Of a stretch of 64,000 nucleotides of DNA, positions 15,013 through 64,000 are shown piece after piece. Within the stretch, counting starts at the first letter, position 1. Each line of letters begins with the position of its first letter. Source of the stretch: Selenomonadaceae bacterium (lineage in GTDB: Bacteria > Bacillota > Negativicutes > Selenomonadales > Selenomonadaceae); NCBI GenBank assembly GCA_036733925.1, contig DAIMZO010000001.1:31605-95604 (forward strand), read 5' to 3'. A model generated the notes under the pieces. It was not told the origin of the DNA. It did no database searches and saw nothing but the letters and a program-made list of their open reading frames with translations. Made by a program: the position numbers and the translations under genes.

Positions 15013-15041
15013 GATTTAGCCTCCTTCCTGATGTCTATGCA

Positions 15042-15338: not shown

Positions 15339-15399
15339 TTTTTGTTCCTCCCCAATCAAATACCTATCTGCATGATGAAAGTAATTCTGGATCTATGTT

Positions 15400-15837
15400 T
15401 CAGCTGTTGAGAATATGAAGCAGATCCTGCTTGGAATCTGCCGCGAGAACTTTTTTCAGGAATGCGCTGTCCATCAGAAGGACAGCCAATTTCTGGATCA
15501 ACTCGATGTGGCTTTTGCTATCTGGCGTGGCCAGAAAAATCCAAAGCCTTGCCTTGTGCGCGGCATCATCGAGCAGCGCAGCTGGATTCTTTGAAAGAAG
15601 CAGTGCCATAGACGCTTTTTTTGTGCTTGGCAACGGTCTTGCATGCGCGAGAACGATATCCGGCCCGATATTCATATAAGGCCCTTTCTCTAAGCATGTA
15701 TGGATGATTTCATCTACATAATCTTGAGCAATCACCCCGTCATCCAAGAGCGGTTTCCCAGCCATCCGGATCATATCTTTCCAGGATATGTCCGGCTGGT
15801 CGGTATATTGCACATAACGATCATTGAAAAGCCCCAT
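15400..15837 (-). CDS. ulaC: PTS EIIA (type 2, SgaA/UlaC-like)
   Basis: 145 aa. Has the GPDIVLAHAR active-site His context of EIIA-2. Confidence 0.85.
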   Translation of the reverse strand: MGLFNDRYVQYTDQPDISWKDMIRMAGKPLLDDGVIAQDYVDEIIHTCLEKGPYMNIGPDIVLAHARPLPSTKKASMALLLSKNPAALLDDAAHKARLWIFLATPDSKSHIELIQKLAVLLMDSAFLKKVLAADSKQDLLHILNS

Positions 15838-15910
15838 TTGCTATTTCCCCCTTTCTTCTATCGCGATTTATCTTACATTGCTTATGATACTATACTATTC
15901 GATTTACAGC

Positions 15911-15955
15911 AAGTGCAATACGATATTGACAAAAGTGCAAAAATTGAACTACTAT
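15911..15955. promoter_or_regulatory. divergent PTS/regulator control region: direct repeats AAGTGCAA x2 and TTGACA-18-TACTAT
   Basis: AAGTGCAA occurs at 15911-15918 and 15933-15940 (22 bp period), flanking TTGACA (15926-15931). TACTAT is at 15950-15955. Confidence 0.35.
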
Positions 15956-15982
15956 AGAAAAAAAGGATTTTTGGAGGGAAAA

Positions 15983-40850: not shown

Positions 40851-40915
40851 CGGACGGGCATGGATGTCCGCCCAAAATGGTAAATGAGGGAGCGCGATGC
40901 TCCCACTCAAGGAGG
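40851..40915 (+). promoter_or_regulatory. flagellin 5' UTR with two candidate CsrA binding sites
   Basis: Hairpin CGGAC-gggcatGGAt-GTCCG (40851-40870) presents GGA in its loop. A second GGA lies in the SD AAGGAGG (40909-40915). Confidence 0.45.
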
Positions 40916-40924
40916 AAAAATATC

Positions 40925-42232
40925 ATGGCAATGGTAGTCAAAAACAACATGTCGGCAATCAGCACGCTGAATACGCTGAACAAGAACTCGTCCGCACTCA
41001 GCAAGAGCCTGCAGAAGGTCTCTTCGGGCATGAAGATCAACTCGGCAGCTGACGATGCTTCCGGGTATGCCATCTCTGAGCGTATGCGCGTCCAGATTCG
41101 CGGCCTCGATCAGGCAAACCAGAACACGCAGAACGGCAGCAGCATGATGAAGGTCGCTGAGGGCGCAGTTTCCTCGACGGTGGACATCCTGAAGACCCTC
41201 AAGGAGAAGGTCATCAACGCAGCCAACGATACGAACACGGACGCAGACCGTCAGACGATTCAGAAAGAGCTCAACCAGAGCATCGACCAGATTGACGACA
41301 ACGCGAACGTCACGTACAACGGCAAATATCTCGTCGATGGTTCGAAGAACACGGTCGGCACGGCAACGTATACGGCGCTGACGAATGAGAGCCTTTCCAC
41401 GGATACGGCTTCGAATTCGGCTCTGACGAGTCTGGCGTCCCGTTCCGGCGATGCGCTCGAGATTTCGACGGACGATAAAATTACGATTTCGTTCGTTCAG
41501 GGCGGCAAGACTTACACGACGAACTACACGGTCGGCTCGACGACGCTCAGCGATATTCTGACGAGCGCAAATGGTATGTCATCCGCTTTCAACACCTCGA
41601 TTACCACGGGCTCTGCTGTCGGCACGGCGACGTCCGGCGCAATGACCTACACGGCAAGCGGTGCAAGCGGCATCACGTTCACGGCAGCTACGGCTGGCGT
41701 TACGTCTCAGGTCGCTGCCCTGACAATCAGCATCACGGATAAGGAAGGCAATGTCAAGAAGTCCGCGAACGCTTCGCTCGATGCGTTCAATGAGACGGTT
41801 CGTGCGCAGAACAAGTCCGAGGACAACGCTATCACGTTGCAGGTCGGCACGAAAGCCAACCAGAGCATCAAGGTCGGCCTGACGGATATGCGCTCTGAGG
41901 CGCTCGGCCTGAAGGGCTCCGATGGCACGAAGCTCAACATCTCGACGCAGGCTAAGGCAAACGCTGCGGTCAACGTCCTCGACAACGCGGTGCAGAAAGC
42001 ACTCGATCAGCAGACGACAATCGGTTCCGTTGAGTCCCGCCTCGATTACACGAGCAGCAACTTGACGACGGCTTCCGAGAACGTCCAGAGCTCCGAGTCC
42101 ACAATCCGCGATGCCGATATGGCAAAGGAAATGACGGAATACACGAAGAACAACGTTCTTCTGCAGGCCGCACAGTCCATGCTCGCACAGGCAAACCAGA
42201 ACAGCAGCTCGGTACTGAGCCTGCTCCAGTAA
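40925..42232 (+). CDS. fliC: flagellin
   Basis: MAMVVKNNMSAISTLNTLNKN...SSGMKINSAADDASGYAISERM N-terminus and ...NVLLQAAQSMLAQANQNSSSVLSLLQ C-terminus. The central domain is S/T-rich. Confidence 0.95.
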   Translation: MAMVVKNNMSAISTLNTLNKNSSALSKSLQKVSSGMKINSAADDASGYAISERMRVQIRGLDQANQNTQNGSSMMKVAEGAVSSTVDILKTLKEKVINAANDTNTDADRQTIQKELNQSIDQIDDNANVTYNGKYLVDGSKNTVGTATYTALTNESLSTDTASNSALTSLASRSGDALEISTDDKITISFVQGGKTYTTNYTVGSTTLSDILTSANGMSSAFNTSITTGSAVGTATSGAMTYTASGASGITFTAATAGVTSQVAALTISITDKEGNVKKSANASLDAFNETVRAQNKSEDNAITLQVGTKANQSIKVGLTDMRSEALGLKGSDGTKLNISTQAKANAAVNVLDNAVQKALDQQTTIGSVESRLDYTSSNLTTASENVQSSESTIRDADMAKEMTEYTKNNVLLQAAQSMLAQANQNSSSVLSLLQ

Positions 42233-50685: not shown

Positions 50686-50728
50686 ATGGTAGAAATGGCA
50701 ATGGTAATGGTATGGCAATGGTATGGAG
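50686..50728 (+). repeat. ATGG(T/C)A hexamer/pentamer microsatellite (7 units) upstream of the TPR gene
   Basis: ATGGTA gaa ATGGCA ATGGTA ATGGT ATGGCA ATGGT ATGGAG. The last unit supplies the GGAGG RBS for ATG 50738. Confidence 0.85.
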
Positions 50729-50737
50729 GCATTTGGC

Positions 50738-51766
50738 ATGAGCAAGGCCAGTCACAAATTCAATAGGAAAAGGCAGAGAAGACAGCAGGCACAGAACACA
50801 TCGCATAGAGATTCGTTGGCGGGGGAAATCCGTTCGCTCTATCAGGACAGGTCGTACGCTGAGGTCATCAACACCTTGGCGGAGTACATCCAGATGGGCG
50901 GGCGCGATGCGGAAATGTACGCCTTGGGGGCATGGAGCTACTACCGTCTCGGCGATTATGAACGCGCCGGGAAATGGGTGGATGCTACCCTCACGCAGAA
51001 TCCGGGCGATGTTTCCATGCGGATCCTGCTGGCACATCTCTGCCTGCATGACGACCGCGTGGGCGATGCCTTAGCGGTTCTTTCTTTTATTCTCGAAAAG
51101 GATATGGCGCTTGACGGGCAGCAGCGCGTTGAGATCGAGGATATGCTGGCCTTTTATGGCAAGCACGAAGCAGAAATGCTGCAGAAAGATTACCCGGCAT
51201 GCTGGGCCTTCCTGCAAGAGCTCCGGGAGGAAAAGAAAAGCGGGGCGGATACATCCAGCCTTTCTAGCGCGGCGGCTAAGAACCCGCAGCAGATTCTGCA
51301 GGATCTGAAGGAGCGCCTGAAAGCAGAGGATACGGCAGCTGAGAACAAAGACGGCGAAGCCGTATCACCGGAAGGTACGGAAGACAGCGGAACGGTACCG
51401 TCGGAAAATAACGAAGACAGAGAGGCCGTGTTATCGGAAGACAGCGAAGCTGACGGAAAGGCATCGGCAGATGATCCATCCCTGCAGCAGGTGATGGAGG
51501 AGATCTCGGATAAACCGGTTTCCCTCAGCGAGAAAGTTGAGCTTTTCCGGGCGTTTGCCGCGGCCAGCTTCTGGAAGAAGGACTATGCAGGGGCGCGCCA
51601 GCTCCTCTCGCAGGCGCTTGCCATCGATGGACGGGATGATACGGCGCTGCGGGACATGGTCATTACCTGCGCCACGCTCGGCGAGAAGGAAGAAGCGGCC
51701 GGTTACCTCGCGAAAATGAAACATATCGATTTTGCCCTTTTATGGATGCTGCAGCACAATTTCTGA
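50738..51766 (+). CDS. stand-alone TPR protein with acidic low-complexity linker
   Basis: TPR-like helices at both ends with an E/D/S-rich centre. ATG 50738 lies 9 nt after GGAGG. ATG 50723 is the alternative. Confidence 0.65.
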   Translation: MSKASHKFNRKRQRRQQAQNTSHRDSLAGEIRSLYQDRSYAEVINTLAEYIQMGGRDAEMYALGAWSYYRLGDYERAGKWVDATLTQNPGDVSMRILLAHLCLHDDRVGDALAVLSFILEKDMALDGQQRVEIEDMLAFYGKHEAEMLQKDYPACWAFLQELREEKKSGADTSSLSSAAAKNPQQILQDLKERLKAEDTAAENKDGEAVSPEGTEDSGTVPSENNEDREAVLSEDSEADGKASADDPSLQQVMEEISDKPVSLSEKVELFRAFAAASFWKKDYAGARQLLSQALAIDGRDDTALRDMVITCATLGEKEEAAGYLAKMKHIDFALLWMLQHNF

Positions 51767-51817
51767 TCGACGTGCAGGCATCGGAGGAATACGTGGATTC
51801 ACGAGGAGGGCAGAATC

Positions 51818-54697
51818 GTGGGAAAAAGGGTCATGGAGGCCGGGCATAAGACGAGCATTGTGATTCTGAGCTATCACACGCTCGCGTACACGCGCCTCTG
51901 CATAGAAAGTATCCGCACCTATACGGAGCCGGGGACGTATGAAATCATTGTCGTGGACAACGGCTCTCAGGACGGATCGGTGGAATATCTGAAGCAGCAG
52001 GAGGACGTGCACGGCATTTTCAATGCCGAGAATCAGGGCTTCCCGCGCGGCTGCAATCAAGGGATGCAGATCGCAAAGGGGGATGAGATCCTGCTGCTCA
52101 ACAGCGATACGGTCGTGACGGCGCACTGGCTCGGGCAGCTGCGCGCCGGTCTTTACAGTGCTGAGGATGTCGGTGCGGTCGGATGCGTGACGAACTACTG
52201 TTCGAACGGGCAGCAGATCGAGGTGCCGTATCACTCGGTCGAGGAAATGCAGGCATTCGCCGCAGGCTATAACCATACGGATCCGTCGCAATGGGAGGAA
52301 CGGACGACGCTCGTCGGCTACTGCCTGCTGTTCCGGCGGGAAGTCTATCAGAAAATCGGCGGGCTCGATGAAAGGTTCAATCCCGGGAATTTCGAGGATG
52401 ATGACTACTGCGTCCGCATCTGGCAGGCGGGATACCGTTGCCTGCTGCTCAAGGATACGTTCATCCATCATTTCGGCAGCGTTTCCTTTGCGCGCGACGA
52501 GAGCCCGGAGGCGCAGAAGGAAAAGACGGAAAAATATCAGGCGCTGCTCCGGCGGAACCAGCACCTGTTCCAGAAAAAATGGCATTTGCCGGAAAACTAT
52601 AAGAGTATGCCGCCGAAGCAGCTCGTTTCTTTTCTGTCGGGCCGGGAACAGGAATCCGATGCGGCAGGCAATGTGATGAATGACGGCAGGATTGCCATTT
52701 TCGTCCCGCCGGGAGGCAAAGACGAGCGCGATGCGTGCCTGGCATCCATCCGCACGCTGAAGGTGCCGGAAGGCTATGAACTGAAGATCGTGCAATGGCA
52801 GGACAGAGGAGAGAGCCTGCCGGAGATTGAGCGGCAGCTCACGCAGGCGAACGCCGCGAAGTATAAGATTTTTCTCGATCCGCGCGTTTCCTTTGTCGCA
52901 GAGGATGTCCTTTTCTCCGTACTCGAGATATTCCGTTCCAATCCGGAGGTAGGGGCAATCGGCGTATGCGGGAGCCGCTGTTTTTCCCGTGACGAGGCGG
53001 GGCTCGACCGCGTGGGCGGCTTCTTTGCCATGGACGGAAATGGCAAGCCAAGAGAATATAACTGGCCGCTCCAGCATGAGGATGCGGCCTATGAATACGT
53101 ACAGCATCTGAATGGCATGATGTTCGCGACGCAATACGATTTGCCCGCACAGGAAACGGGCGCCGTCTCCTGGCTCGGGGAGCATCTCCTGCGTTCGTTC
53201 GATTACGCGGACTTCGGCTATCGCCTCGCGGTACCGCGGCAGGAGCATCCATGGTGTTTCTTCGCCGCAGATATGCCCGCGTGGCTGGATGGCGTGCCCA
53301 TGGACTGCCTTGACCGGTTTTACCATGGCGGCGTATGGGGAAGCTGCGGGGCCGGCACACAGATCGGGGAAGTCACGGCAGACCACCCTGAGCGGGTGCG
53401 GATCAGCGTGCAGTCCGTCATCGGGGATAAGGTATCCATGACAGCGGGCGCGGGTATCCGTATCGGCGATTCGGTGTCCATCGGACAGGGCGCGGAAATC
53501 GCGGCGTCCGGGGCCGAGCTGGTGATTGGGAACCGTGCAGAAATCGGTGCCGGGGCAGTCCTTGAGGGTGCACTGCGGATCGGCACCGGTGCGGTCGTCG
53601 CGCCGGGCAGCCATGTCTTGGGAGATGTGCCGCCGTATTGCCATGTGCAGGGCAGTCCGGCAAAAATCACCTCCTTTTTTGATGTGGAGAAATGCGCCTG
53701 GCAGTCCGCGCTGCTGGGCGCGAAGCGGGTGGAGCGGCCGGTCCTGACGGTAGCAATCCCAACGTTCAACCGCGCGCGTTTCCTGGCCAAGAGCCTGCAT
53801 GCCATCTGTGCACAGGCGGGGGATAACCCCTTTGTCGAAATCTTCGTTTCGGATAATGCCTCTACGGACGACACGCCGCGGATCACCGGGTTTTATGAAA
53901 AGCAGTATTCCAATGTCCGCATCGTCCGGCAGAAGGAAAATATCGGCGGCGCGAAGAACTTCGATTTCCTGCGGCGGCATGCACGCGGAAAATTCGTGGT
54001 GACGATCGGCGATGACGATTATTTCTGTCCGGATGTCATCCACAGCATGCTGCGCACGATATTCCTGCACCCGGATTCGGCCATCCTCACGATGCTCTGG
54101 GCGCCTTCCGGCTACCGCGAAGAGGCCGGAGACGGCATGGATTACTATCTGCAGAAAGCATCCTTCACTATCACTTATATTACTGCTTTGCTCTTTCGGA
54201 CGGAGTATGTGCGGGATGTGGTTATCCCGGAGAAGTTCGAACATGGGTTCATCCCGCAGGTTGCCGTCCAGATGGAAATCCTGCGGCGTCATCCGGAATT
54301 TGCGACATTCTCCATGCATTACCTGCTGCCGTCGTCCGGCGAAGCCGTCCGCACTTCCGCAGAGGAGCGGAATACGTGGAAGAACAACTCTGGACTTCTG
54401 AATTTCGGGAAAGTCTTTATCGATGAGTACTTCACGATCCTGCAGTATTATATCGGAAAAGGACTGTCGGAAGCGTCGTACCGTATGGAAATGAAGAAGG
54501 AACTGGAAGGGCACTTGCTGCCATGGTCGAAAATGATTCAGCAGGGCACGACGCTTTATCACACCGGAGACGTCCTGAAATACTACGATCAGTATTACCG
54601 GCAGGAACCGTATTATGCGGAGGAACGTCGCCTGCTTGAGGCATACGTGGAGACGGATACCGTTTACCAGGATATGCCGGACGACAGGGGGGTGTGA
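51818..54697 (+). CDS. GT2 - GT-A-like - hexapeptide acyltransferase - GT2 four-module protein
   Basis: 959 aa. N-terminal GT2 (IVILSYHT...VVDNGSQDGS...EDDDYC), central GT-A-like region, LbH repeats (IGDSVSIGQGAEI...IGNRAEIGAGAVL...GSPAKI), and C-terminal GT2 (VAIPTFNRARFL...VSDNASTDDT). GTG 51818 follows GAGGAGGG. Confidence 0.8.
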   Translation: MGKRVMEAGHKTSIVILSYHTLAYTRLCIESIRTYTEPGTYEIIVVDNGSQDGSVEYLKQQEDVHGIFNAENQGFPRGCNQGMQIAKGDEILLLNSDTVVTAHWLGQLRAGLYSAEDVGAVGCVTNYCSNGQQIEVPYHSVEEMQAFAAGYNHTDPSQWEERTTLVGYCLLFRREVYQKIGGLDERFNPGNFEDDDYCVRIWQAGYRCLLLKDTFIHHFGSVSFARDESPEAQKEKTEKYQALLRRNQHLFQKKWHLPENYKSMPPKQLVSFLSGREQESDAAGNVMNDGRIAIFVPPGGKDERDACLASIRTLKVPEGYELKIVQWQDRGESLPEIERQLTQANAAKYKIFLDPRVSFVAEDVLFSVLEIFRSNPEVGAIGVCGSRCFSRDEAGLDRVGGFFAMDGNGKPREYNWPLQHEDAAYEYVQHLNGMMFATQYDLPAQETGAVSWLGEHLLRSFDYADFGYRLAVPRQEHPWCFFAADMPAWLDGVPMDCLDRFYHGGVWGSCGAGTQIGEVTADHPERVRISVQSVIGDKVSMTAGAGIRIGDSVSIGQGAEIAASGAELVIGNRAEIGAGAVLEGALRIGTGAVVAPGSHVLGDVPPYCHVQGSPAKITSFFDVEKCAWQSALLGAKRVERPVLTVAIPTFNRARFLAKSLHAICAQAGDNPFVEIFVSDNASTDDTPRITGFYEKQYSNVRIVRQKENIGGAKNFDFLRRHARGKFVVTIGDDDYFCPDVIHSMLRTIFLHPDSAILTMLWAPSGYREEAGDGMDYYLQKASFTITYITALLFRTEYVRDVVIPEKFEHGFIPQVAVQMEILRRHPEFATFSMHYLLPSSGEAVRTSAEERNTWKNNSGLLNFGKVFIDEYFTILQYYIGKGLSEASYRMEMKKELEGHLLPWSKMIQQGTTLYHTGDVLKYYDQYYRQEPYYAEERRLLEAYVETDTVYQDMPDDRGV

Positions 54698-54699
54698 GC

Positions 54700-55479
54700 A
54701 TGAAAGCAGTAATCCTGGCCGGCGGGTACGGCACGCGGATCTCAGAGGAGTCGCAGTACAAGCCGAAGCCGATGGTCGAGATCGGCGGCATGCCGATCCT
54801 ATGGCATATCATGAAGGAATATTCGGCTTATGGCATACAAGATTTCATCATCTGTGCCGGCTATAAACAAGAAATAATCAAGGAGTGGTTCAACAACTAC
54901 TTCCTGTACATGAGCGACGTGACGTTCGACATGACGGATGGCAAGAAGGTCATCCTGCACGAGCAGCATGCGGAACCGTGGCGTGTGACCGTCGTTGATA
55001 CGGGGGAGGCGACGCTGACGGGCAGCCGCATCAAACGCGTGCAGAAATACGTTGGGAATGAGACCTTCTGCATGACGTACGGCGACGGCGTCTGCGATGT
55101 CGATATCCAGAAGGTCATCGCGTTCCATCGGAAGCATGGCAAGATTGCGACGCTCACGGCGGTCCTGCAGAAGCAGTCGAAGGGCGTGCTGAATATCGGC
55201 GGCGATTTCGCCGTGAAATCCTTCCGCGAGAAATCGCAGATGGACAGTGCGCCCATCAATGCCGGCTACATGGTCTTGGAGCCGGAAATCTTCGACTATC
55301 TGACAGAGGACGGCTGCATCTTTGAGCAGGAGCCCATGCGCCGCCTTGCGGCAGAGGGACAGCTCATGAGCTATCAGCACCGCGGTTTCTGGCAGTGCAT
55401 GGACACGCTTTATGAGAAAATGGAACTAGAACGGCTTTGGGAAAGCGGGGCGGCACCATGGAAAGTATGGGACAAGTGA
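54700..55479 (+). CDS. rfbF: glucose-1-phosphate cytidylyltransferase
   Basis: MKAVILAGGYGTRISEESQYKPKPMVEIGGMPILWHIMK is the RfbF/DdhA signature. Confidence 0.9.
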   Translation: MKAVILAGGYGTRISEESQYKPKPMVEIGGMPILWHIMKEYSAYGIQDFIICAGYKQEIIKEWFNNYFLYMSDVTFDMTDGKKVILHEQHAEPWRVTVVDTGEATLTGSRIKRVQKYVGNETFCMTYGDGVCDVDIQKVIAFHRKHGKIATLTAVLQKQSKGVLNIGGDFAVKSFREKSQMDSAPINAGYMVLEPEIFDYLTEDGCIFEQEPMRRLAAEGQLMSYQHRGFWQCMDTLYEKMELERLWESGAAPWKVWDK

Positions 55480-56576
55480 ATGGCGCGCCCGCCTGGCGTG
55501 ACTTCTATCGGGGCAGGCGCGTGCTCATCACCGGGCATACCGGGTTCAAGGGAATCTGGCTCGTGAAAATGCTCCAGCATCTCGGCGCGGAGGTTGCGGG
55601 CTATGCCTTGGCATCGCCGACGGAGGAAGGTGCAAGGCTCTATCGGGCACTCGGCATCGGCCGGAGCCTCATACAGGATGTGCGCGGCGACGTGCGGAAT
55701 CTGGCGTCTTTGGCGCGCGTGTTCGCGGATTTCCGCCCGGAGGTCGTGCTGCATCTCGCCGCACAGCCAATCGTGCGCGAGAGCTATCGCGACCCCGTCG
55801 GTACGTACGAGACGAACGTCATGGGGACGGTCCATGTCCTCGAATGCGCGCGGCAGACAGAGAGCGTCCGGTCGCTGCTCAATGTGACCACCGACAAGGT
55901 CTATGAGAACCGGGAATGGTGCTGGGGCTACCGCGAGAATGAGCCGCTCGACGGCTTCGACCCGTACTCGAACAGCAAGAGCTGCAGCGAGCTTGTGACG
56001 CACAGCTATGCAAAAAGCTTTTTCGCGGACGGGCGGTGCGCCATCTCGACGGCGCGTGCCGGCAACGTCATCGGCGGCGGAGATTTCTCGCCGGATCGCA
56101 TCGTGCCGGATTGTATCCGCGCAGCGGCTGCCGGGCGCAAGATCCGGGTGCGCAACCCGTATTCGACGCGCCCCTATCAGCATGTGCTCGAGCCGCTCTA
56201 CGCCTATCTCATGCTTGCGGCAGGGCAGCGGAAGCGGCCAGAGCTCGCTGGGGCCTACAATGTCGGCCCGGACGAATGCGACTGTGTGACGACTGGTGAA
56301 CTCGCGACGCTTTTCTGCCAGATCTGGGGAGATGGCGCGGAGTGGGAGAGCGGGGCGGAGCAGGATGCGCCGCATGAGGCCAATTTCCTGAAGCTCGACT
56401 GCTCGAAGCTGAAGGCTGCGTTTGGCTGGCAGCCGCGCTGGCATATCGCCGACGCTATGGCAAAGACGGTCGGATGGGCCAAGGCATGGCAGAAACAGGA
56501 AGACATCGCAGCGGTCATGGAAAGGCAGATCCAAGACTTTATGGAAACAGGGGAAGCGAGGGAAGATCTACGATGA
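55458..56576 (+). CDS. rfbG: CDP-glucose 4,6-dehydratase
   Basis: RVLITGHTGFKGIWL Rossmann motif and YSNSK catalytic motif. Overlaps the rfbF stop. ATG 55467 is the alternative. Confidence 0.9.
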   Translation: MESMGQVNGAPAWRDFYRGRRVLITGHTGFKGIWLVKMLQHLGAEVAGYALASPTEEGARLYRALGIGRSLIQDVRGDVRNLASLARVFADFRPEVVLHLAAQPIVRESYRDPVGTYETNVMGTVHVLECARQTESVRSLLNVTTDKVYENREWCWGYRENEPLDGFDPYSNSKSCSELVTHSYAKSFFADGRCAISTARAGNVIGGGDFSPDRIVPDCIRAAAAGRKIRVRNPYSTRPYQHVLEPLYAYLMLAAGQRKRPELAGAYNVGPDECDCVTTGELATLFCQIWGDGAEWESGAEQDAPHEANFLKLDCSKLKAAFGWQPRWHIADAMAKTVGWAKAWQKQEDIAAVMERQIQDFMETGEAREDLR

Positions 56577-57898
56577 ATCAGCAGGAAATGCACGACAAGA
56601 TCCTAGAGATGGTCAAGGAGTATTGCGATACGTACCACCAGCCAAAGCCGTACCACGAGGGTGACCGCATCCCGTATGCGTCCCGCGTCTACGACCACGA
56701 GGAGATGTGCAACCTCGTCGACAGCGCGCTCGAGTTCTGGCTGACGGCCGGCCGCTATGTGGATGAGTTCGAGAAAGAGCTCGCGAAATACCTCGGCGTC
56801 CGCTTCGTGTCGGTCGTGAACTCGGGTTCGTCCGCGAACCTGCTCGCGTTCATGACGCTGACCTCGCCGAAGCTCGGCGACCGCCGGATCCGCCGCGGCG
56901 ACGAGGTCATCACAGTCGCGGCCGGCTTCCCGACGACCGTTTCACCAATCGTGAACTACGGCGCGGTGCCGGTATTCGTCGACGTCACGATCCCGCAGTA
57001 CAACATCGACGTGACGAAGCTCGAGGCGGCCTTCTCGGACAAAACGAAAGCCGTCATGATCGCCCATACGCTCGGCAACCCGTTTGACCTGCAGGCGGTC
57101 AAGGCGTTCTGCGACAAGCACGGCCTCTGGCTCATCGAGGATAACTGCGACGCGCTCGGCTCGCTCTACACGATCGACGGCGAGGAGAAGTTCACCGGCA
57201 GCGTCGGCGACATCGGCACGTCGAGCTTCTACCCGCCGCATCACATGACGATGGGGCAGGGCGGCGCCGTCTACACGGATAGTCCGCTCCTCAACCGCAT
57301 CGCGCGTTCCTTCCGCGACTGGGGCCGCGACTGCGTCTGCGCGCCCGGCGAGGACAACCACTGCGGCCACCGTTTCGACGGGCAGTACGGCGAGCTGCCG
57401 AAAGGCTACGACCATAAATACGTCTACTCCCATTTCGGCCTGAACCTCAACATCTCCGACATGCAGGCCGCCGTCGGCTGCGCCCAACTCAAGAAGTTCC
57501 CGGGCTTCGTCGAGCGCCGCCGCCATAACTTCAATTACCTCAAAGCGGGCCTCCGTGACCTCGAGGACAAGCTCATCCTGCCCAAGGCTGCCCCGAACAG
57601 CAAGCCGAGCTGGTTCGGTTTCCTCATGACCTGCCGCGAGGGCGTCGACCGGAGGGAAGTCGTGCCCTACATCGAGAGCAAAGGCGTCCAGACCCGCATG
57701 CTCTTCGCTGGCAACCTCATCAAGCACCCATGCTTCGACGAGATGCGTGAGACAGGTGAGGGCTACCGCATCGTCGGCTCCCTCGAGAACACCGACCGCA
57801 TCATGAACGACACCTTCTGGGTCGGCGTCTACCCCGGCATGACTGACGAGAAACTCGACTACATGATCAAAGTCATCCATGAAGCCGTGAAGGCGTAA
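56573..57898 (+). CDS. rfbH: CDP-6-deoxy-L-threo-D-glycero-4-hexulose-3-dehydrase (E1, RfbH/DdhC)
   Basis: ITVAAGFPTTV, SFYPPHHMTMGQGG and SFRDWGRDCVCAPGEDNHCGHRF (Fe-S Cys cluster) match RfbH along its length. ATGA-coupled to rfbG. Confidence 0.9.
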   Translation: MNQQEMHDKILEMVKEYCDTYHQPKPYHEGDRIPYASRVYDHEEMCNLVDSALEFWLTAGRYVDEFEKELAKYLGVRFVSVVNSGSSANLLAFMTLTSPKLGDRRIRRGDEVITVAAGFPTTVSPIVNYGAVPVFVDVTIPQYNIDVTKLEAAFSDKTKAVMIAHTLGNPFDLQAVKAFCDKHGLWLIEDNCDALGSLYTIDGEEKFTGSVGDIGTSSFYPPHHMTMGQGGAVYTDSPLLNRIARSFRDWGRDCVCAPGEDNHCGHRFDGQYGELPKGYDHKYVYSHFGLNLNISDMQAAVGCAQLKKFPGFVERRRHNFNYLKAGLRDLEDKLILPKAAPNSKPSWFGFLMTCREGVDRREVVPYIESKGVQTRMLFAGNLIKHPCFDEMRETGEGYRIVGSLENTDRIMNDTFWVGVYPGMTDEKLDYMIKVIHEAVKA

Positions 57899-57949
57899 AC
57901 GCCGGACTATCGGTTATCTGTACGTTTATACGTTTATAGGAAGAAGTGT

Positions 57950-59554
57950 ATGGCAATGGCAACGAGAGAATTATTAGATTGTACGCTGCGCGATGGTGGC
58001 TACGTCAACGATTGGGAATTCGGGCACGACAAGATTACGGAGATTTTCAAACGTCTGGTGAGTTCGGGGGTCGAATTCATTGAAATCGGATTCCTCGATG
58101 AACGCCGTGAATTTGATAGGAATCGCACGATTTTCCCGGATACGCAGTCTGCTAACAAGATTTTTGCCGGACTCGATAAGGGGAATGCGACCGTCCTCGC
58201 GATGATTGATTATGGCACTTGCGGCATCGAGCATCTGCAGCCGGCCAAGGATACCATCATCGACGGAATCCGCGTGATTTTCAAAGAACATCTGATGTAC
58301 GAAGCGCTGGACTTCTGCAAGCAGGTCAAGGCCCTCGGCTACAAGGTCTTTGCACAGATGGTTTCCGTTACAACCTATACGGACGAGAAACTGAAAGTTT
58401 ACGCGGAGGAATGCAATAAACTCATGCCATTCGCGACGTCCATGGTCGATACGTACGGTCTGCTCGATCAGGAGCATCTGATGCACATCTTCGGCATCCT
58501 GGATGCGAACCTCAATCCGGCCATCAAAGAGGGGTTCCATGCGCACAACAATTTCCAGCTCGGCTATGCTAATGCAAAAGCATTTCTCGCCTGTGACAGT
58601 AGCAGAGATCTGTTGGCGGATGGCACGCTGTATGGCATGGGGAAAAGCGCGGGCAATGCGCCGCTCGAACTGCTCCTCATGTACCGCAATGAGAAACAGG
58701 GTGCGCACTATGACGTCAGTCAGGCGCTCGAGGCTATCGACAATGTAATCCTCGATATCTATCGGAAGCAGTATTGGGGCTATAATATGTTCTTTTATAT
58801 TGCCGCCTCGACGCAGTGCCACCCGAACTATGTGCGCTATTTCATGAACAAGAAGACGCTGTCCGTCAAACAGATTCTGGACATCCTGCACAGCCTGAAA
58901 AAAGAGAAGCAGCTCCTTTACGATGCCAAGTACGCCGAGCAGATGTATCTGGAGTATCAGAGTGTCGAATGCGATGACAAAAAGACGCTGAACGAGCTCA
59001 AGAAACGGTTCAGCAATCAGGATATCCTGCTGATCGGCCCGGGTAGGAACATCCAGCGGCAGAAATCGAAGGTGCGTGACTATATCGTTGAGCACCGTCC
59101 CCTGACTGTTGCCGTGAACTATGCGCCGAAGGACATCAAAGTGGACTACATCTTCCTGACGAAATCCAAGCGCTATACCCAGCTCATGAACGACCTGCAG
59201 GGCAGCATCAACGAGGATGTGGACATCCTTGCGACGTCCAACGTGACGAAGACTGCCGGTACATTCCGCTACGTGCTGAAATACGAATCCCTGATCGATC
59301 CGGACACGGAAATCATCGATAACTCGCTGGTCATGCTCATCAAAGCGATGATGGAAATCGGCGTCAAAGCGGTCAATCTGGCGGGATTCGACGGATACTC
59401 CAAGAGCGAGGATAACTATTTCGACATCAGCCGGGAGTACAGCTTTGTCAAGGAGAAATCCGGCTACCTGAACCAGTACGTCAAGGACTTCCTGCAAAAA
59501 GTCTCCGACGAAATAGCTGTTCAGTTTATCACTCGTTCCTACTATAAAGACTGA
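57950..59554 (+). CDS. HMGL-like aldolase-domain protein fused to a C-terminal Maf/MptE(DUF115)-like region
   Basis: N-terminal LLDCTLRDGGYVNDWEFG is a pyruvate-carboxyltransferase/aldolase TIM-barrel signature. The C-terminal ~190 aa (ILLIGPG...NLAGFDGY) is a separate domain, and its assignment is tentative. Confidence 0.65.
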   Translation: MAMATRELLDCTLRDGGYVNDWEFGHDKITEIFKRLVSSGVEFIEIGFLDERREFDRNRTIFPDTQSANKIFAGLDKGNATVLAMIDYGTCGIEHLQPAKDTIIDGIRVIFKEHLMYEALDFCKQVKALGYKVFAQMVSVTTYTDEKLKVYAEECNKLMPFATSMVDTYGLLDQEHLMHIFGILDANLNPAIKEGFHAHNNFQLGYANAKAFLACDSSRDLLADGTLYGMGKSAGNAPLELLLMYRNEKQGAHYDVSQALEAIDNVILDIYRKQYWGYNMFFYIAASTQCHPNYVRYFMNKKTLSVKQILDILHSLKKEKQLLYDAKYAEQMYLEYQSVECDDKKTLNELKKRFSNQDILLIGPGRNIQRQKSKVRDYIVEHRPLTVAVNYAPKDIKVDYIFLTKSKRYTQLMNDLQGSINEDVDILATSNVTKTAGTFRYVLKYESLIDPDTEIIDNSLVMLIKAMMEIGVKAVNLAGFDGYSKSEDNYFDISREYSFVKEKSGYLNQYVKDFLQKVSDEIAVQFITRSYYKD

Positions 59555-59569
59555 TAGGGGAAATGTACG

Positions 59570-60310
59570 ATGTGTAAGTTCAAAGGTAAAGTGGCTCTGG
59601 TCACTGGTGGCTCCTCAGGAATAGGGGGGGCGACATCTGTCCTTCTGGCACGGAGTGGAGCTGACGTAATATTTGTTGGAAGAGATTCTGTCAAAGGAAA
59701 AGAGCAGGAAGAACGGATACGGTCCGAACATGGGAAGGCAAGATTCATTCCGGCGGACGTTTCGAAACGGTCGGATATCGAGCGATTGAAGGATATCATC
59801 GTTAACGAATATGGCCATTTAGATGTATTGTTCAATAACGCGGGAATCCTATTGACTGGTGCATTGGATGAGCTGACGGATGAAGAATGGGATAAGAGCT
59901 ATGAAGTGAACGTCAAGGCGACTCTGCATATGTGCCAGGCATTCATGGGGATGCTGCAGGCCTCGCATGGCGTTATCCTGAATAATGCCTCTATCAATGG
60001 ATTGCATACCTATATCAAGGGGAAACGCAGCTATATGTATGCAACTTCCAAGGCCGCGAATATTCAGCTGACAAGATATCTGGCAAAGAACTATGCGCCA
60101 GAAGTCCGCGTGAACGCCATTTGCCCGGGGATGACGAAGACGAATTTATTCACGAACCGCGATTTTTCCCGTTTCAAGGATGTCAATCTGCTAGGTCGTA
60201 TGGCGGATCCAATGGAAATTGCGAAAACGGCACGGTTCTTACTGTCCGATGATTCCTCGTTCATGACAGGATCGATTGTTGTCGTAGACGGGGGTGAAAC
60301 CATCCGCTGA
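59570..60310 (+). CDS. short-chain dehydrogenase/reductase (candidate YerF-like ketoreductase)
   Basis: TGGSSGIGGAT, NNAG and Y-x3-K (YATSKAA) SDR motifs. Confidence 0.85.
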   Translation: MCKFKGKVALVTGGSSGIGGATSVLLARSGADVIFVGRDSVKGKEQEERIRSEHGKARFIPADVSKRSDIERLKDIIVNEYGHLDVLFNNAGILLTGALDELTDEEWDKSYEVNVKATLHMCQAFMGMLQASHGVILNNASINGLHTYIKGKRSYMYATSKAANIQLTRYLAKNYAPEVRVNAICPGMTKTNLFTNRDFSRFKDVNLLGRMADPMEIAKTARFLLSDDSSFMTGSIVVVDGGETIR

Positions 60311-60388
60311 AAATGGTGCGGATGGTTTGGATATGGATGGAATCGTATATCGCCTTTTGTGATATGTGAGGATGAGGGAAGAATTTCT

Positions 60389-62194
60389 ATGAAACAGAAG
60401 GTATCGGATTATATAGCAGATTTTTTTGTTCATCATGGACTGAGTCAGGTTTTCTGCGTCGTCGGCGGTGGGGCTATGCATCTGAATGATTCGTTCGGGC
60501 ACCGAGACGATATGCATGTCCTGTATAATCACCATGAGCAGGCATCGGCTATGGCGGCAGAAGCTTATGCTAGGGTAGCCGGAAAACCTGCTGTCCTGTG
60601 CGTGACCAGCGGCCCCGGTGCAATCAATGCGTTGAATGGTGTCGTTGGTGCGTATCAGGATTCCATTCCGATGCTTGTGGTTTCCGGGCAGACGAAATCC
60701 ACCCTTACGGTCAAGCATAGCGGCCTGAACCTTCGGACTCTTGGCAATCAAGAATTTGATATCGTATCGACCTTGGATCATGTAGCGAAATATGCGGAAA
60801 CAATCATGGAGCCGAAAAAAATCCGTTACTGTTTAGAGAAAGCCTATATATCCGCCGTTTCCGGGCGGCCAGGACCGGCGTGGCTGGATATTCCATTGGA
60901 TATTCAGGGTTCTTATGTTGAGACGGATGAATTGGAAGGCTATGAACCGTCTGCGGCTGAAAATCATCATACCGATTTATCGCTGGTCATGCCTAGAATT
61001 TCGAGACTGCTGAAGAAAGCGAAACGGCCGGTGCTTTACGCTGGAAATGGCATTCGGATTGCAGGCGGCAGCGAGCTTTTCAAAAAACTTGTCGATAGGT
61101 ATCGTATTCCCGTTGTGACCTGTTGGGACAGCATCGACCTGATGCCTACGGACAGTCCCTACTACTGCGGCCGCGGTGGTACGATGGGAGACCGCGCCGG
61201 CAATTTTGCCGTCCAGAACAGTGATTTGCTGATCTGTATTGGAACAAGGCTGAACATCTATCAGGTCGGGTATAATGTCAAAACATGGGCAAGAGCGGCG
61301 ACAACGGTCGTAGTAGACATTGATCCGGAAGAGCTGAAAAAGCCGATCCTGCGCGCGGATATTCCAGTTTGTGCGGACGCCGTCGACTTCATGACTGCCT
61401 TTATCGAATCCGTAGATGAGGTGAAAGCTGACGAAGATTGGATCCGTCAATGCCAAGCATGGAAGAAGAACTATCCAGTCGTGCGGCCCGAACAGCTGGC
61501 CCAATCCGGCGCAGTGAATGTCTACGCGTTCATGGATGCCCTGAGCAAGCATCTTCCCGATGCGTCGATAACCGTGGTGACGAATGGATCTGCCAGCGTG
61601 GTCGGGAGCCAGTCTTATTATATCAAGAATCACGACCGTTTTATCATGAACTGCGGATTGTCCTCGATGGGGTATGGGCTCCCCGCTGCAATCGGTGCGT
61701 GTGTGGCAAGTCACCATCATCCTGTTGTTTGCCTAGAGGGCGATGGAAGCATCATGATGAATCTTCAGGAACTGCAGACGATGGTAACGAATCAGCTGTC
61801 AATCAAGCTTTTTGTTATCAATAATCATGGCTATCATCAAATCCGGCAGACGCAGAATAATATTTTCCACAATGGTTTGATTGGTGTAGGGCCGGAGAGT
61901 GGTGATTTAGGTTTTCCAGATTTCCAGAAACTTGCCGCAGCCTTTGGTATCCGTTATGTCGGAATCAAGAACAATCAGCGCATCCAAGATGGCCTGAATG
62001 AAGTTTGGCTGGATGAGGATGCCTGCCTATGCGAAGTCTTCGTGACGACCACGCAGAAGTTCGAACCGAAGTCGGCGACCAAGAAGTTGCCGGACGGAAC
62101 ATTGGTCAGTCCGCCACTGGAGGATATGGCCCCGTTCCTGCCAAGGGAAGAGTTGAAGAAGAATATGTATATTCCGCTGGTTCCAGAGGTATAA
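60389..62194 (+). CDS. thiamine-diphosphate-dependent acetolactate-synthase-like enzyme (candidate YerE-like C-branching enzyme)
   Basis: N-terminal Pyr domain (HEQASAMAAEAYARVAGKPAVLCVTSGPGAINAL) and C-terminal ThDP motif (GDGSIMMNLQELQT...NN). No small regulatory subunit gene is nearby. Confidence 0.85.
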   Translation: MKQKVSDYIADFFVHHGLSQVFCVVGGGAMHLNDSFGHRDDMHVLYNHHEQASAMAAEAYARVAGKPAVLCVTSGPGAINALNGVVGAYQDSIPMLVVSGQTKSTLTVKHSGLNLRTLGNQEFDIVSTLDHVAKYAETIMEPKKIRYCLEKAYISAVSGRPGPAWLDIPLDIQGSYVETDELEGYEPSAAENHHTDLSLVMPRISRLLKKAKRPVLYAGNGIRIAGGSELFKKLVDRYRIPVVTCWDSIDLMPTDSPYYCGRGGTMGDRAGNFAVQNSDLLICIGTRLNIYQVGYNVKTWARAATTVVVDIDPEELKKPILRADIPVCADAVDFMTAFIESVDEVKADEDWIRQCQAWKKNYPVVRPEQLAQSGAVNVYAFMDALSKHLPDASITVVTNGSASVVGSQSYYIKNHDRFIMNCGLSSMGYGLPAAIGACVASHHHPVVCLEGDGSIMMNLQELQTMVTNQLSIKLFVINNHGYHQIRQTQNNIFHNGLIGVGPESGDLGFPDFQKLAAAFGIRYVGIKNNQRIQDGLNEVWLDEDACLCEVFVTTTQKFEPKSATKKLPDGTLVSPPLEDMAPFLPREELKKNMYIPLVPEV

Positions 62195-62207
62195 GGAGAT
62201 AATGGAT

Positions 62208-63266
62208 ATGGAAATTCAATCGAGATTCAAAATCTATTCTGTGAACTTCGTAGATTCTTTGCGGGATATTGCAGATTTGGCAGATAAGCCAGAGACATTC
62301 TTTGTTTTTGATTGTCAGGTTTACACGAAATATCAATCGGAACTGCCAGATCTTCCAGAAGGAAAGCTGTTCCTGATGGATGCGGAAGAAACGAATAAGA
62401 ACATGGATACGGTCTTGGCGATATGCGAACAGATGACCAATATGCCGTCAAAACGGAACACGCATCTCATATCCGTTGGAGGCGGTATTGTCCAGGATAT
62501 TACCGGCTTTGTTGCATCGAGCTTGTACCGCGGAATACGATGGACGTTTTATCCATCTACCTTGCTCGCATCCTGCGATAGCTGCATCGGCGGGAAATCT
62601 TCCTTGAATTACAAAGGCTTCAAGAATCTTCTAGGATCGTTTTACCCTCCAGATGAAATCCGTATCTATCCACAGTTTTTCCATACTTTATCCGCACGGG
62701 ACTATTGCAGCGGGTTGGGCGAAGTCGTGAAATTCAACGTCATTGCGGGCGGTTCTGCGTTCGATAAGATGGAGAAAGACATCGATGCTATTCTGAGCCA
62801 TGATTATGACAAGCTGCAGCAATATATCCAGACATCCCTGCATTTCAAGAAAACGTTTATTGAAGAAGATGAGTTTGACCGTGGCGTACGTATCCTGCTG
62901 AATTTCGCACATACGTTCGGGCATGGATTTGAAGTCAGCAGCAATTATGTCATTCCGCATGGGACGGCGGTTGCTTTGGGGATGATTACGGCAAACAATA
63001 TTTCGGTGCAGCGCGGCTGGATGGATTCGGCATATGCGGAGCGGATCGAAAAAGTATGCCGGAGAATCCTCACCGAAATCGTATGGAAATCGGAATATTT
63101 CCATCTGGACGTCCTGCTGCGCGCCATTCACAAAGACAAGAAACAGACGAGCCATGCGATTACCGCGGTCTTGATCCAGAAAGATGGTACCCTTGGCCTG
63201 GTGCACGATGTTCAGGAATCCGAGATCGAGCAGGCGGTACATCATCTTATAGAATGTCTCGTGTAA
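62208..63266 (+). CDS. 3-dehydroquinate-synthase-like (sugar phosphate cyclase superfamily) enzyme
   Basis: GGGIVQDITGF, PSTLLASCDSCIGGKSSLNY, KNLLGSFYPP, HTFGHGFE and HGTAVALGM align with DHQS motifs. ATG 62208 lies 9 nt after AAGGAG. ATG 62202 is the alternative. Confidence 0.8.
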   Translation: MEIQSRFKIYSVNFVDSLRDIADLADKPETFFVFDCQVYTKYQSELPDLPEGKLFLMDAEETNKNMDTVLAICEQMTNMPSKRNTHLISVGGGIVQDITGFVASSLYRGIRWTFYPSTLLASCDSCIGGKSSLNYKGFKNLLGSFYPPDEIRIYPQFFHTLSARDYCSGLGEVVKFNVIAGGSAFDKMEKDIDAILSHDYDKLQQYIQTSLHFKKTFIEEDEFDRGVRILLNFAHTFGHGFEVSSNYVIPHGTAVALGMITANNISVQRGWMDSAYAERIEKVCRRILTEIVWKSEYFHLDVLLRAIHKDKKQTSHAITAVLIQKDGTLGLVHDVQESEIEQAVHHLIECLV

Positions 63267-63293
63267 ACGTACGTGTCGTGAGGTGTGATATCG

Positions 63294-64000
63294 ATGGCAG
63301 AGGAAGTAAGGGAATTAGAGAATGGGAATCGGGTCGTCGGGCAGGCATACGGGAACGCAAACCTGCAGTTTCAGGGGCATGATTCCAGTATCGTTTTTGG
63401 TGAGAATTGTTATTTTTCCAATGTCCGGCTTTTTATCGGCAGCAATGTCAAGGTTTCATTCGGCAGCAATGTGGTATGGAATCATGGCGATATTTTTTTG
63501 CCGGAGGGCGAATCATCTTTCGTGGTGGAGAATGGATGCAGTCTGGGAGGGGATATAGAAATCGCCCGATACGGTGCCGTTCATATCGGGGAGGGAACGA
63601 CAACGCCTTCTGGAAGAATCGGGATGCCGGGCAATGTCTTTTCGGTCAGCCCGTGGACGTCGCTCGATATCGGCAAAGGATGTGCAATCTCTTGGGGCGT
63701 AACATTCCTGACGAATGACGGGCACACGATTTTCGACGTGCGCACGGGGCAGAACCTCAATTCTACAGAGGAAATCAGCAGGAAGAGGAAAATCGTCGTT
63801 GGCGATCATGTGTGGATCGGCTGCATGTCGACAATTCTCTACGGGAGCGTCATCGGTGATGGGAGCATCATAGGGGCACACAGTCTGGTAAAAAGGCGCA
63901 TACCGAATAACTGTCTGGCGGCGGGCAATCCGACGCGGATCATACGCCGCGATGTAGCTTGGAGCCGCACGAATTGCAACATGGATATGGCACATTGTAT
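63294..64000 (+). CDS. hexapeptide-repeat (LbH) acetyltransferase, 3' end outside window
   Basis: My own translation from ATG 63294 (GAGGTG RBS) stays open to the window end. ...VVGDHVWIGCMSTILYGSVIGDGSIIGAHSLVKRRIPNNCLAAGNPTRIIR is a typical LbH O-acetyltransferase C-terminus. It is not in the supplied ORF track because no stop lies in the window. Confidence 0.8.
   Translation, partial: MAEEVRELENGNRVVGQAYGNANLQFQGHDSSIVFGENCYFSNVRLFIGSNVKVSFGSNVVWNHGDIFLPEGESSFVVENGCSLGGDIEIARYGAVHIGEGTTTPSGRIGMPGNVFSVSPWTSLDIGKGCAISWGVTFLTNDGHTIFDVRTGQNLNSTEEISRKRKIVVGDHVWIGCMSTILYGSVIGDGSIIGAHSLVKRRIPNNCLAAGNPTRIIRRDVAWSRTNCNMDMAHC

Follow-up and report, generated by a model that had tools for sequence, protein, structure and literature searches.

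Acyl-branched sugars such as erwiniose, caryophyllose and gastriose follow a scheme in which ddh genes are combined with an aldolase, a YerE-like thiamine diphosphate (ThDP)-dependent enzyme and a reductase (PMC9306805). ThDP-dependent branching of cytidine diphosphate (CDP)-4-keto-3,6-dideoxyglucose at C-4 is already known, and the yersiniose A pathway of Yersinia pseudotuberculosis O:VI (ddhA-D, YerE, YerF) is the described system in which a two-carbon branch is formed. An aldolase beside the YerE-like gene marks a longer donor (Steitz et al.; PMC9306805), as in the case of ErwE, which does not accept pyruvate and works with 4-hydroxy-2-oxo acids supplied by the BphI-like ErwI (PMC9306805). 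A further YerE-like enzyme, JanthE of Janthinobacterium, couples 2-oxo acids to ketones (PMC12188165, PMC12247030); it accepts pyruvate, and its physiological substrates are unknown (PMC12188165). The genes rfbFGH are also known from Firmicute flagellar islands: in Clostridium, islands with predicted CDP-paratose/3,6-dideoxyhexose genes carry them among flagellar genes, with candidate proteins joining a tetratricopeptide repeat (TPR) to a family 2 glycosyltransferase (GT2) adjacent and without rfbI, the gene for the E3 reductase (PMC13317340). Here we examine a stretch of 64,000 nucleotides from contig DAIMZO010000001.1 of a Selenomonadaceae bacterium (the window), in which a group of sugar genes at positions 54700-64000 lies downstream of a flagellin gene (Table 1). 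Judged from homology and gene order, we lean towards reading this group as a cytoplasmic pathway to a CDP-activated 3,6-dideoxyhexose with an acyl branch at C-4, the predicted branch being a long one rather than that of yersiniose.

All four parts of the published scheme (ddh genes, pyruvate aldolase, YerE-like enzyme and NAD(P)H reductase) were found within positions 54700-62194. For the ThDP enzyme, the best match in a search of PDB sequences was JanthE of Janthinobacterium sp. HH01 (8RPH, with the further structures 8RPI and 8RPJ) at 439 bits, while acetohydroxyacid synthases (AHAS) reached about 230 bits and PpYerE (5AHK), a YerE homolog, 204 bits. Sequence identity amounts to 38% over the full length with JanthE, 27% with PpYerE and 28-31% with two AHAS; JanthE, for its part, scores 231 bits against PpYerE and hardly less, 219 bits, against AHAS I. 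The alignment with JanthE, the closest solved relative, runs from end to end and includes a C-terminal tail of about 40 residues (…DGTLVSPPLED…) that AHAS lack. The catalytic glutamate (E50) and the GDG…NN cofactor motif (G451-D452-G453, N478-N479) are conserved, and the pocket lysine K567 and tyrosine Y297 of JanthE are kept. The two enzymes differ in the ThDP motif, which is CDG in JanthE and the canonical GDG in the window enzyme, and at V121, Y268 and P293 of JanthE, which are N, M and Y here. In a neighbor-joining tree with the PDB entries of JanthE, PpYerE and two AHAS as references, the window family grouped with JanthE in 200/200 bootstraps, and the split between the window family, JanthE and PpYerE on one side and the AHAS I of E. 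coli and the AHAS of yeast on the other was likewise recovered in 200/200. We file the protein as a putative JanthE-type, YerE-like carboligase rather than as a YerE ortholog. The first-pass annotation of this DNA, made from the sequence alone, had likened it to YerE; this stands insofar as the enzyme is YerE-like, coupled to the genes for CDP-4-keto-3,6-dideoxyglucose and set apart from anabolic AHAS in the tree. A close orthology to YerE is doubtful, the identity to PpYerE being about the same as that to AHAS.

The reading of the ThDP enzyme as an ordinary acetolactate/acetohydroxyacid synthase, serving branched-chain amino acid or acetoin metabolism, is effectively refuted. A JGI source labels its relatives 'acetolactate synthase', and the best NCBIfam model is indeed that of the AHAS large subunit (TIGR00118), but the score of 354 bits lies far under the cut-off of 538, and the enzyme falls further still below the cut-offs of all other AHAS models. 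To the low identity with the two AHAS compared, the separation in all bootstraps and the JanthE-type tail it can be added that the ThDP gene has neither an AHAS small subunit nor ilv genes beside it, its neighbors being a short-chain dehydrogenase/reductase (SDR) and a dehydroquinate synthase (DHQS)-like gene, and that its synteny with rfbH is conserved. The missing regulatory subunit had been pointed out at first pass.

This synteny became apparent in a scan of one genome per species, which returned several hundred relatives of the ThDP enzyme from Lachnospiraceae, Oscillospiraceae, Selenomonadaceae, Treponema and even Methanomassiliicoccales; 80 loci were kept. In 53 of these 80 species loci (28 of the 39 that are fully covered) the ThDP gene has an rfbH-like gene no more than 10 kb away, and in 25 of 65 the upstream rfbH-like gene and the ThDP gene are less than 300 nt apart. 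A homolog of an extended SDR (about 310 aa; Epimerase family, no specific NCBIfam) was found within 10 kb in 60/80 loci, usually directly after the ThDP gene. The common module rfbF-rfbG-rfbH-ThDP-extended SDR parallels ddhA-ddhB-ddhC-yerE-yerF, which we regard as strong evidence that the family acts on the product of RfbH. That the window enzyme is the one that branches the CDP-ketosugar appears quite probable to us. The pathway had been called unexpected in a Firmicute-type genome, a view that does not hold given that several hundred species genomes, from gut and rumen anaerobes, contain the family, and given the rfbFGH genes of clostridial flagellar islands (PMC13317340).

The identities of rfbF, rfbG and rfbH proposed at first pass are borne out, as all three proteins score above their NCBIfam cut-offs (Table 1). 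RfbH carries the cysteine set C-X61-C-X-C-X7-C (C192, C254, C256, C264) and has a histidine ('FYPPHH') at the position of the aminotransferase Schiff-base lysine, features that we take to define the E1 type. The three genes are tightly packed: rfbF starts with an ATG at 54700, 3 nt after the stop codon (TGA, 54695-54697) of the upstream glycosyltransferase gene, and rfbG and rfbH share an ATGA overlap at 56573-56576. Coupling by ATGA overlaps, as claimed before, applies to this second junction; rfbF and rfbG overlap by GTGA (GTG at 55476) or, if the ATG at 55467 is the start, by 13 nt.

In agreement with the earlier annotation, an E3 reductase (2Fe-2S ferredoxin plus FNR-like flavoprotein; rfbI/ddhD) was not detected in the window, where a motif scan, as opposed to a hidden Markov model search, found no open reading frame (ORF) with a plant-type 2Fe-2S motif. 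In about 85 related loci the same type of scan gave two false positives but no full E3 (2Fe-2S plus RxYS). General ferredoxin/flavodoxin systems can serve E1-type enzymes, SpnQ being the analogous case. Clostridial flagellar islands with rfbFGH also lack rfbI (PMC13317340). On both grounds the missing E3 is no argument against the pathway. In one related locus (L023, 9324-9998) an FNR-like NAD-binding protein of 224 aa is encoded directly after rfbH, possibly a remnant or a minimal E3.

The window enzyme belongs to a subclade (A, 94% bootstrap) whose members are 58-71% identical to it, while the sister clade B (51-57% identity) mostly shows the plain module. Near the ThDP gene, all 10 subclade-A loci carry both a fusion protein with an aldolase domain and a DHQS-like gene, 8 of the 10 have a homolog (≥40% identity) of the classical SDR of the window within 10 kb, and several encode a small VOC/glyoxalase-like protein. 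Among the nine related subclade-A loci rfbH lies within 10 kb in six and at least one of rfbF, rfbG and rfbH in eight; over that distance L014 has none of the three and L007 has rfbF only. In about ten clade B loci the aldolase fusion stands directly beside the ThDP gene, sometimes together with a HAD phosphatase. The two groups also differ at two substrate-pocket residues of JanthE (PMC12188165): the position of V121 is N or G in subclade A versus D in 73/73 clade B sequences, and that of P293 is Y in 9/10 subclade-A versus R in 73/73 clade B sequences. The AHAS acceptor arginine (RFDDR) was tried as a marker separating the family from AHAS and rejected; clade B keeps it in 73/73 sequences, and it separates the subclades only.

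Directly behind rfbH the composition of the window changes. The G+C content at third codon positions (GC3) is 0.88 in rfbH, 0.69 in the aldolase gene and 0.53-0.55 in the three genes that follow (SDR, ThDP and DHQS-like), with the break at 57.9 kb. The first-pass gene list had passed over this break, the aldolase fusion, although it lies inside the interval described, and the DHQS-like gene directly after it. The fusion protein comprises 534 aa, with the aldolase domain at residues 1 to about 320 and a C-terminal domain of about 214 aa. Its best PDB matches are 3DXI, a 'putative aldolase', and the 4-hydroxy-2-oxovalerate aldolases DmpG and BphI, and in the alignment with DmpG the Arg-Asp ('TLRDG') and HxH ('HAH') metal ligands are kept. 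The C-terminal domain (window positions 58910-59554) gave no meaningful Pfam match at E≤10, and the PDB sequence search found nothing past residue 318. Its AlphaFold2 model (pLDDT 84) is Rossmann-like, with the conserved motifs GPG, KR and AGFDGY; Foldseek returned no PDB match at E≤0.001, the best weak ones being Rossmann-like (pantothenate synthetase, SteA; TM-score ≤0.43). A Maf/MptE-like identity, which had been guessed for this domain, was supported by no test.

The DHQS-like protein exceeds the cut-off of the separate, uncharacterised family TIGR04425 and remains under that of aroB (TIGR01357, 275 versus 305 bits); both DHQS Pfam domains are present. It keeps 13/13 of the metal, phosphate and carboxylate ligands that in DHQS presumably bind 3-deoxy-D-arabino-heptulosonate 7-phosphate (DAHP), the residue roles being those we take from the Aspergillus nidulans structure. 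The same 13 ligands are kept in 11/12 cassette members, L020 having a gap at K356. A complete DAHP-binding site points to a 3-deoxy-2-ulosonate 7-phosphate as the substrate, and the pyruvate aldolase could form such a compound from pyruvate and erythrose-4-phosphate. The gene stands in the context of a nucleotide-sugar cassette and not of shikimate-pathway genes. Our literature search found nothing relevant on TIGR04425, on the combination of flagellin, dehydroquinate synthase and a ThDP enzyme, or on a branched sugar in Veillonella.

Comparison with the known pathways shows both the common logic and the additions. As in the yersiniose A pathway, homologs of RfbF, RfbG and RfbH lead to CDP-4-keto-3,6-dideoxy-D-glucose, and an AHAS-like ThDP enzyme beside them is placed for acyl addition at C-4, to be followed by ketoreduction. 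Apart from the low identity to PpYerE and the lack of E3 (ddhD), the window differs by the aldolase fusion and the DHQS-like gene, by the absence of an extended-SDR partner, and by its setting in a Negativicute flagellar island as opposed to an enterobacterial O-antigen cluster. The gene logic is the same as for erwiniose (ErwE/F/I/J), caryophyllose (MMAR_2331/2332) and gastriose (MygE/F/I), a comparison made through the published scheme rather than the sequences of ErwE, MMAR_2332 or MygE; ErwI is likewise a member of the BphI/DmpG superfamily. Different are the divergent DRE-TIM aldolase with its His to Tyr exchange, its fused 214-aa domain and the lack of an ErwJ/BphJ partner, and the DHQS-like enzyme is an extra conserved member outside the published scheme. 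The clostridial islands share rfbFGH, the adjacent TPR-GT2 candidates and the missing E3 with the window; there the sugar is finished by RfbS (paratose synthase), and neither a ThDP enzyme nor an aldolase or DHQS-like gene is mentioned for them (PMC13317340).

The pathway that we favor would run as follows. RfbF, RfbG and RfbH, assigned by strong homology, would turn glucose-1-phosphate into CDP-4-keto-3,6-dideoxy-D-glucose, RfbH presumably receiving its electrons from the general ferredoxin/flavodoxin system, since there is no E3. The ThDP enzyme would decarboxylate a 2-oxo acid and add the acyl anion to the C-4 ketone, leaving a tertiary alcohol with an acyl branch, as suggested by its homology to characterised ketone-accepting carboligases and the conserved adjacency to rfbH. 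We are inclined to think that the donor comes from the aldolase: it would probably be a 4-hydroxy-2-oxo acid and not plain pyruvate, with the fusion protein joining pyruvate to an aldehyde, which by analogy with the erwiniose/caryophyllose scheme is probably a phosphorylated aldose. A DAHP-like C7 acid is a tentative and rather doubtful candidate for this donor. More speculatively still, such a C7 3-deoxy-2-ulosonate phosphate might lose its phosphate by DHQS-type chemistry and the resulting ketone might be reduced by the classical SDR, the simplest outcome being a six-carbon deoxy-polyol branch like that of caryophyllose. Loss of CO2 and of the phosphate from DAHP, together with reduction of one ketone, gives the caryophyllose side chain, which makes a caryophyllose-like dodecose the simplest prediction. 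The window does not contain the YerF-type reductase, for which relatives use the extended SDR; its gene may be located past position 64000. In some relatives further genes occur at equivalent places: the DHQS-like and ThDP genes have an FGGY sugar kinase between them in L013 (8709-10004) and L014 (8654-9991), and a HAD phosphatase stands beside the aldolase fusion in L023 (11821-12570), L017 (about 6.4 kb) and L061 (about 6.5 kb). A phosphorylated intermediate would be consistent with these genes.

The first-pass annotation had predicted a two-carbon branch, with the ThDP enzyme using pyruvate for an acetyl group and the SDR reducing it to a 1-hydroxyethyl group, as in a yersiniose-type octose; the aldolase and the DHQS-like enzyme would then make something else. 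Several observations fit this. The ThDP enzyme is YerE-like and linked to rfbH, JanthE accepts pyruvate (PMC12188165), most clade B loci show that a simple rfbFGH-ThDP-reductase version without aldolase exists, and the SDR of the window resembles acetoin/butanediol dehydrogenases, which reduce acyloins. However, the aldolase fusion and the DHQS-like gene share the low-GC3 cassette of the window and accompany the subclade in 10/10 loci, two pocket positions differ between subclade A and the plain clade, and ErwE, with its neighboring aldolase, rejects pyruvate (PMC9306805). The reductase argues in the same direction, as the plain clusters pair with the extended SDR and not with a classical one. 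The 246-aa SDR, whose best NCBIfam models are a glucose 1-dehydrogenase subfamily and BudC (both under cut-off), probably belongs with the aldolase/DHQS cassette; an SDR is thus present as had been claimed, but it is probably not the counterpart of YerF, a part that more likely falls to the extended SDR of the relatives. The constant company of the aldolase and DHQS-like genes, the pocket differences and the published scheme taken together fit a long branch better than yersiniose, and we consider the two-carbon branch unlikely.

The DHQS-like enzyme gives rise to two further readings. In the first, its usual phosphate elimination and intramolecular aldol reaction act on a DAHP-derived C7 unit that is, or later becomes, the C-4 branch, and so yield a quinate-like carbocycle joined by a C-C bond to the 3,6-dideoxyhexose; we think this decidedly improbable, and if true, an undescribed class of monosaccharide would be displayed on flagellin in this bacterium and, in some strains of the common human commensal Veillonella parvula, on the polysaccharide of the envelope. 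In the second, which we rate as very unlikely, the carbocycle pathway is self-contained: a dehydroquinate-like ketone made from a DAHP-like acid would itself be the acceptor of the ThDP enzyme, and RfbFGH would supply an ordinary 3,6-dideoxyhexose. With the DHQS active site fully conserved a cyclic ketone is chemically expected, and YerE-like enzymes including JanthE accept cyclic ketones (PMC12247030); the composition break between rfbH and the cassette and the two loci with rfbF only or none of the three genes within 10 kb (L007, L014) point the same way. Against it stand the family-wide tie of the ThDP gene to rfbH, often in direct adjacency and without a DHQS-like gene, the presence of rfb genes around most related subclade-A loci, and the lack in the window of an evident enzyme that would activate or transfer a free carbocyclic acid.

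A number of points weigh against the long-branched sugar as we propose it. A DHQS-type reaction normally ends in a carbocycle, which is no longer a 2-oxo acid, so that cyclisation avoided, cyclisation after branching, or a cyclic ketone as the acceptor itself are the three possibilities. The catalytic His21 of DmpG is a Tyr in the aldolase fusion ('RDGGY'), which scores far under equivalog cut-off (79 versus 229 bits; TIGR03217, 75.5 versus 286 bits), and a DmpF/BphJ-like acylating aldehyde dehydrogenase as partner is not present. No homolog of the extended SDR was found in the window by tblastn. The neighbor-joining tree has two AHAS outgroups only and is built without YpYerE, ErwE and MMAR_2332. 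The GC3 of the stretch from the aldolase to the DHQS-like gene differs from that of rfbFGH, which suggests that the linkage seen here is recent. As to the attachment to flagellin, L007 is the only related locus seen to have a flagellin gene at a distance of up to 10 kb from the ThDP gene, flanks of 10 kb being too short for testing this linkage across relatives, and in the non-motile V. parvula the module serves a Wzx-type polysaccharide.

The cassette is indeed portable. Two independent metagenomic Logan contigs (4.6 kb; L001/L002) begin at window position 57948, exactly at the GC3 boundary, and together with the break itself this makes the cassette look recently acquired, inserted or strain-variable. 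In V. parvula (L088/L089, 2612-11994; metagenomic scaffolds) the order rfbF-rfbG-rfbH-aldolase fusion-SDR-ThDP-DHQS-like-extended SDR is that of the window followed by an extended SDR, with proteins 59-73% identical to those of the window, and the locus also holds an initiating transferase (Bac_transf), Glf, GtrA, glycosyltransferases and a Wzx-type flippase. The sequence index lists 1182 blocks with the V. parvula DHQS-like protein, and the search table 634 contigs. The single V. parvula O-antigen that has been solved (DSM 2008) contains mannitol, and no branched sugar was reported in the review consulted. In L007, by comparison, the cassette directly follows two flagellin genes, and in Pectinatus haikarae it stands behind a TPR-GT2 / GT2-hexapeptide-GT2 set similar to that of the window. 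The module is shared, then, between envelope polysaccharide loci and flagellar islands.

In the window the sugar genes are preceded by flgK, an flgL-like gene, FlaG, fliD and flagellin, and then by five genes for TPR/GT2/GT41 proteins (Table 1), all on the plus strand. None of the 14 proteins encoded between the flagellin gene and the window end (40877-64000) has a transmembrane-like segment, which fits cytoplasmic protein glycosylation better than lipid-linked polysaccharide assembly, and no flippase, polymerase or initiating phosphoglycosyltransferase was found between these positions. The setting is consistent with flagellin glycosylation, as the first-pass annotation had proposed from the neighborhood: late flagellar genes lie upstream and the glycosyltransferases are soluble and include TPR proteins. 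From this position and solubility we infer that the adjacent transferases probably attach the branched sugar to flagellin. Alternatively, the module may serve another glycoconjugate, such as a lipopolysaccharide (LPS) O-antigen or a capsule, and stand beside the flagellar genes by insertion only. The same module in a Wzx/Bac_transf locus of the non-motile V. parvula, the recently acquired look of the cassette and the presence of LPS in Selenomonadaceae are compatible with this alternative. It has little probability in our view because the module is co-directional with and tightly packed behind flagellin and the five soluble proteins, no component of lipid-linked assembly is encoded in 40877-64000, and the cassette follows flagellin genes in L007 as well.

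Table 1. Features of the window and, in the last three rows, extended SDR genes of related loci
Feature	Position	Strand	Basis	Presumed role or remark
Flagellin	40877..42232	+	Pfam Flagellin_N and Flagellin_C	Presumed glycosylation target
TPR-GT2	42304-44895	+	Pfam	Presumed flagellin glycosyltransferase/modifier
GT2-GT2	44862-47234	+	Pfam	Presumed flagellin glycosyltransferase/modifier
GT41-like	47209-50676	+	Pfam	Presumed flagellin glycosyltransferase/modifier
TPR protein	50723-51766	+	Pfam	Presumed member of the flagellin glycosyltransferase/modifier set
GT2-GT2_5-hexapeptide-GT2	51818-54697	+	Pfam	Presumed flagellin glycosyltransferase/modifier
rfbF/ddhA	54700..55479	+	TIGR02623 equivalog, 385.7 bits (cut-off 300)	Glucose-1-phosphate cytidylyltransferase
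rfbG/ddhB	55476 (GTG) or 55467 (ATG)..56576	+	TIGR02622 equivalog, 431 bits (cut-off 278)	CDP-glucose 4,6-dehydratase
rfbH/ddhC	56573..57898	+	NF011936, 718 bits (cut-off 423)	E1, CDP-4-keto-6-deoxyglucose 3-dehydrase (pyridoxamine phosphate, 2Fe-2S)
AT-rich spacer, 51 nt	57899..57949		Sequence read; short tandem 'gtacgtttatacgtttata'	At composition break
DRE-TIM (HMGL-like, DmpG/BphI-type) pyruvate-aldolase domain plus unknown Rossmann-like domain	57950..59554	+	PF00682, 74.8 bits	Presumed 2-oxo-acid donor maker
Classical SDR (FabG/acetoin-reductase-like), 246 aa	59570..60310	+	adh_short	Cassette ketoreductase
JanthE-type YerE-like ThDP carboligase	60389..62194	+	TPP_enzyme_N/M/C	Presumed C-4 branching enzyme
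DHQS-like 'AroB-related putative sugar phosphate phospholyase (cyclizing)'	62202..63266	+	TIGR04425, 447 bits (cut-off 400)	
Hexapeptide-repeat acyltransferase, cut by window end	63294..64000	+	PF00132	Possible O-acylation of sugar
Extended SDR, L015	11862-12794			
Extended SDR, L005	12886-13806			
Extended SDR, L088	11062-11994			

Some further observations concern the window at large and its relatives. The GT41 protein inside the flagellar island has 1155 aa and is O-GlcNAc-transferase-like, presumably recalling the flagellin glycosyltransferase GmaR of Listeria. A scan for promoters and terminators over 44.5-64 kb gave counts not above those of shuffled sequences and detected no terminator between genes. 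On the minus strand, antisense ORFs of great length (374-940 aa) lie over real genes at 51740-54562, 55410-56534 and 57974-59497, and are taken to be artefacts of the high GC3 and not genes. Outside the island, the region 13666-18079 is of low G+C content (0.495, window mean 0.575) and encodes a PRD/EIIA/HTH regulator and, on the minus strand, a phosphotransferase system EIIC-GAT permease. The SdhA of the host shares a 90%-identity cluster with Mitsuokella jalaludinii, in keeping with a probable place in the Selenomonadaceae. Among the relatives, three have a radical-SAM/SPASM protein by the cassette (L003, 14671-17873; L011, 11855-13504; L013, 14135-15196), and L003 and L011 in addition an FkbM-type methyltransferase, neighbors that hint at further tailoring of the sugar. 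In L038 (10001-15412) one aldolase fusion lies between two paralogous ThDP genes, with products sharing 53% and 43% identity with the window enzyme. Two contigs of metagenome-assembled genomes of Methanomassiliicoccales, which are archaea (L020, and L036 with rfbF and rfbH as well), also carry ThDP, aldolase and DHQS-like genes, the result of either inter-domain transfer or bin contamination.

New, as far as the literature examined shows, are three points: the putative role of the JanthE-type clade in sugar branching in gut anaerobes, the conserved link of this clade to the aldolase fusion and the DHQS-like gene, and its location in a flagellar island. Yersiniose, erwiniose and caryophyllose, acyl-branched deoxysugars that shape antigenicity, are known from a few Proteobacteria and mycobacteria. 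A related branching module is common in gut, rumen and oral anaerobes, with several hundred species genomes including V. parvula, Selenomonas and Pectinatus; it moves between O-antigen or capsule loci and flagellar glycosylation islands, and one sub-type has recruited a DHQS-like enzyme and a new aldolase fusion. The locus offers a physiological context for JanthE-like enzymes, whose natural substrates are unknown, and if the proposed pathway is true, carboligases that form tertiary alcohols from functionalised donors would be of interest for biocatalysis. Abundant human commensals would in that case show an undescribed long-branched or carbocyclic sugar on their flagellin, the ligand of TLR5, or on their LPS.

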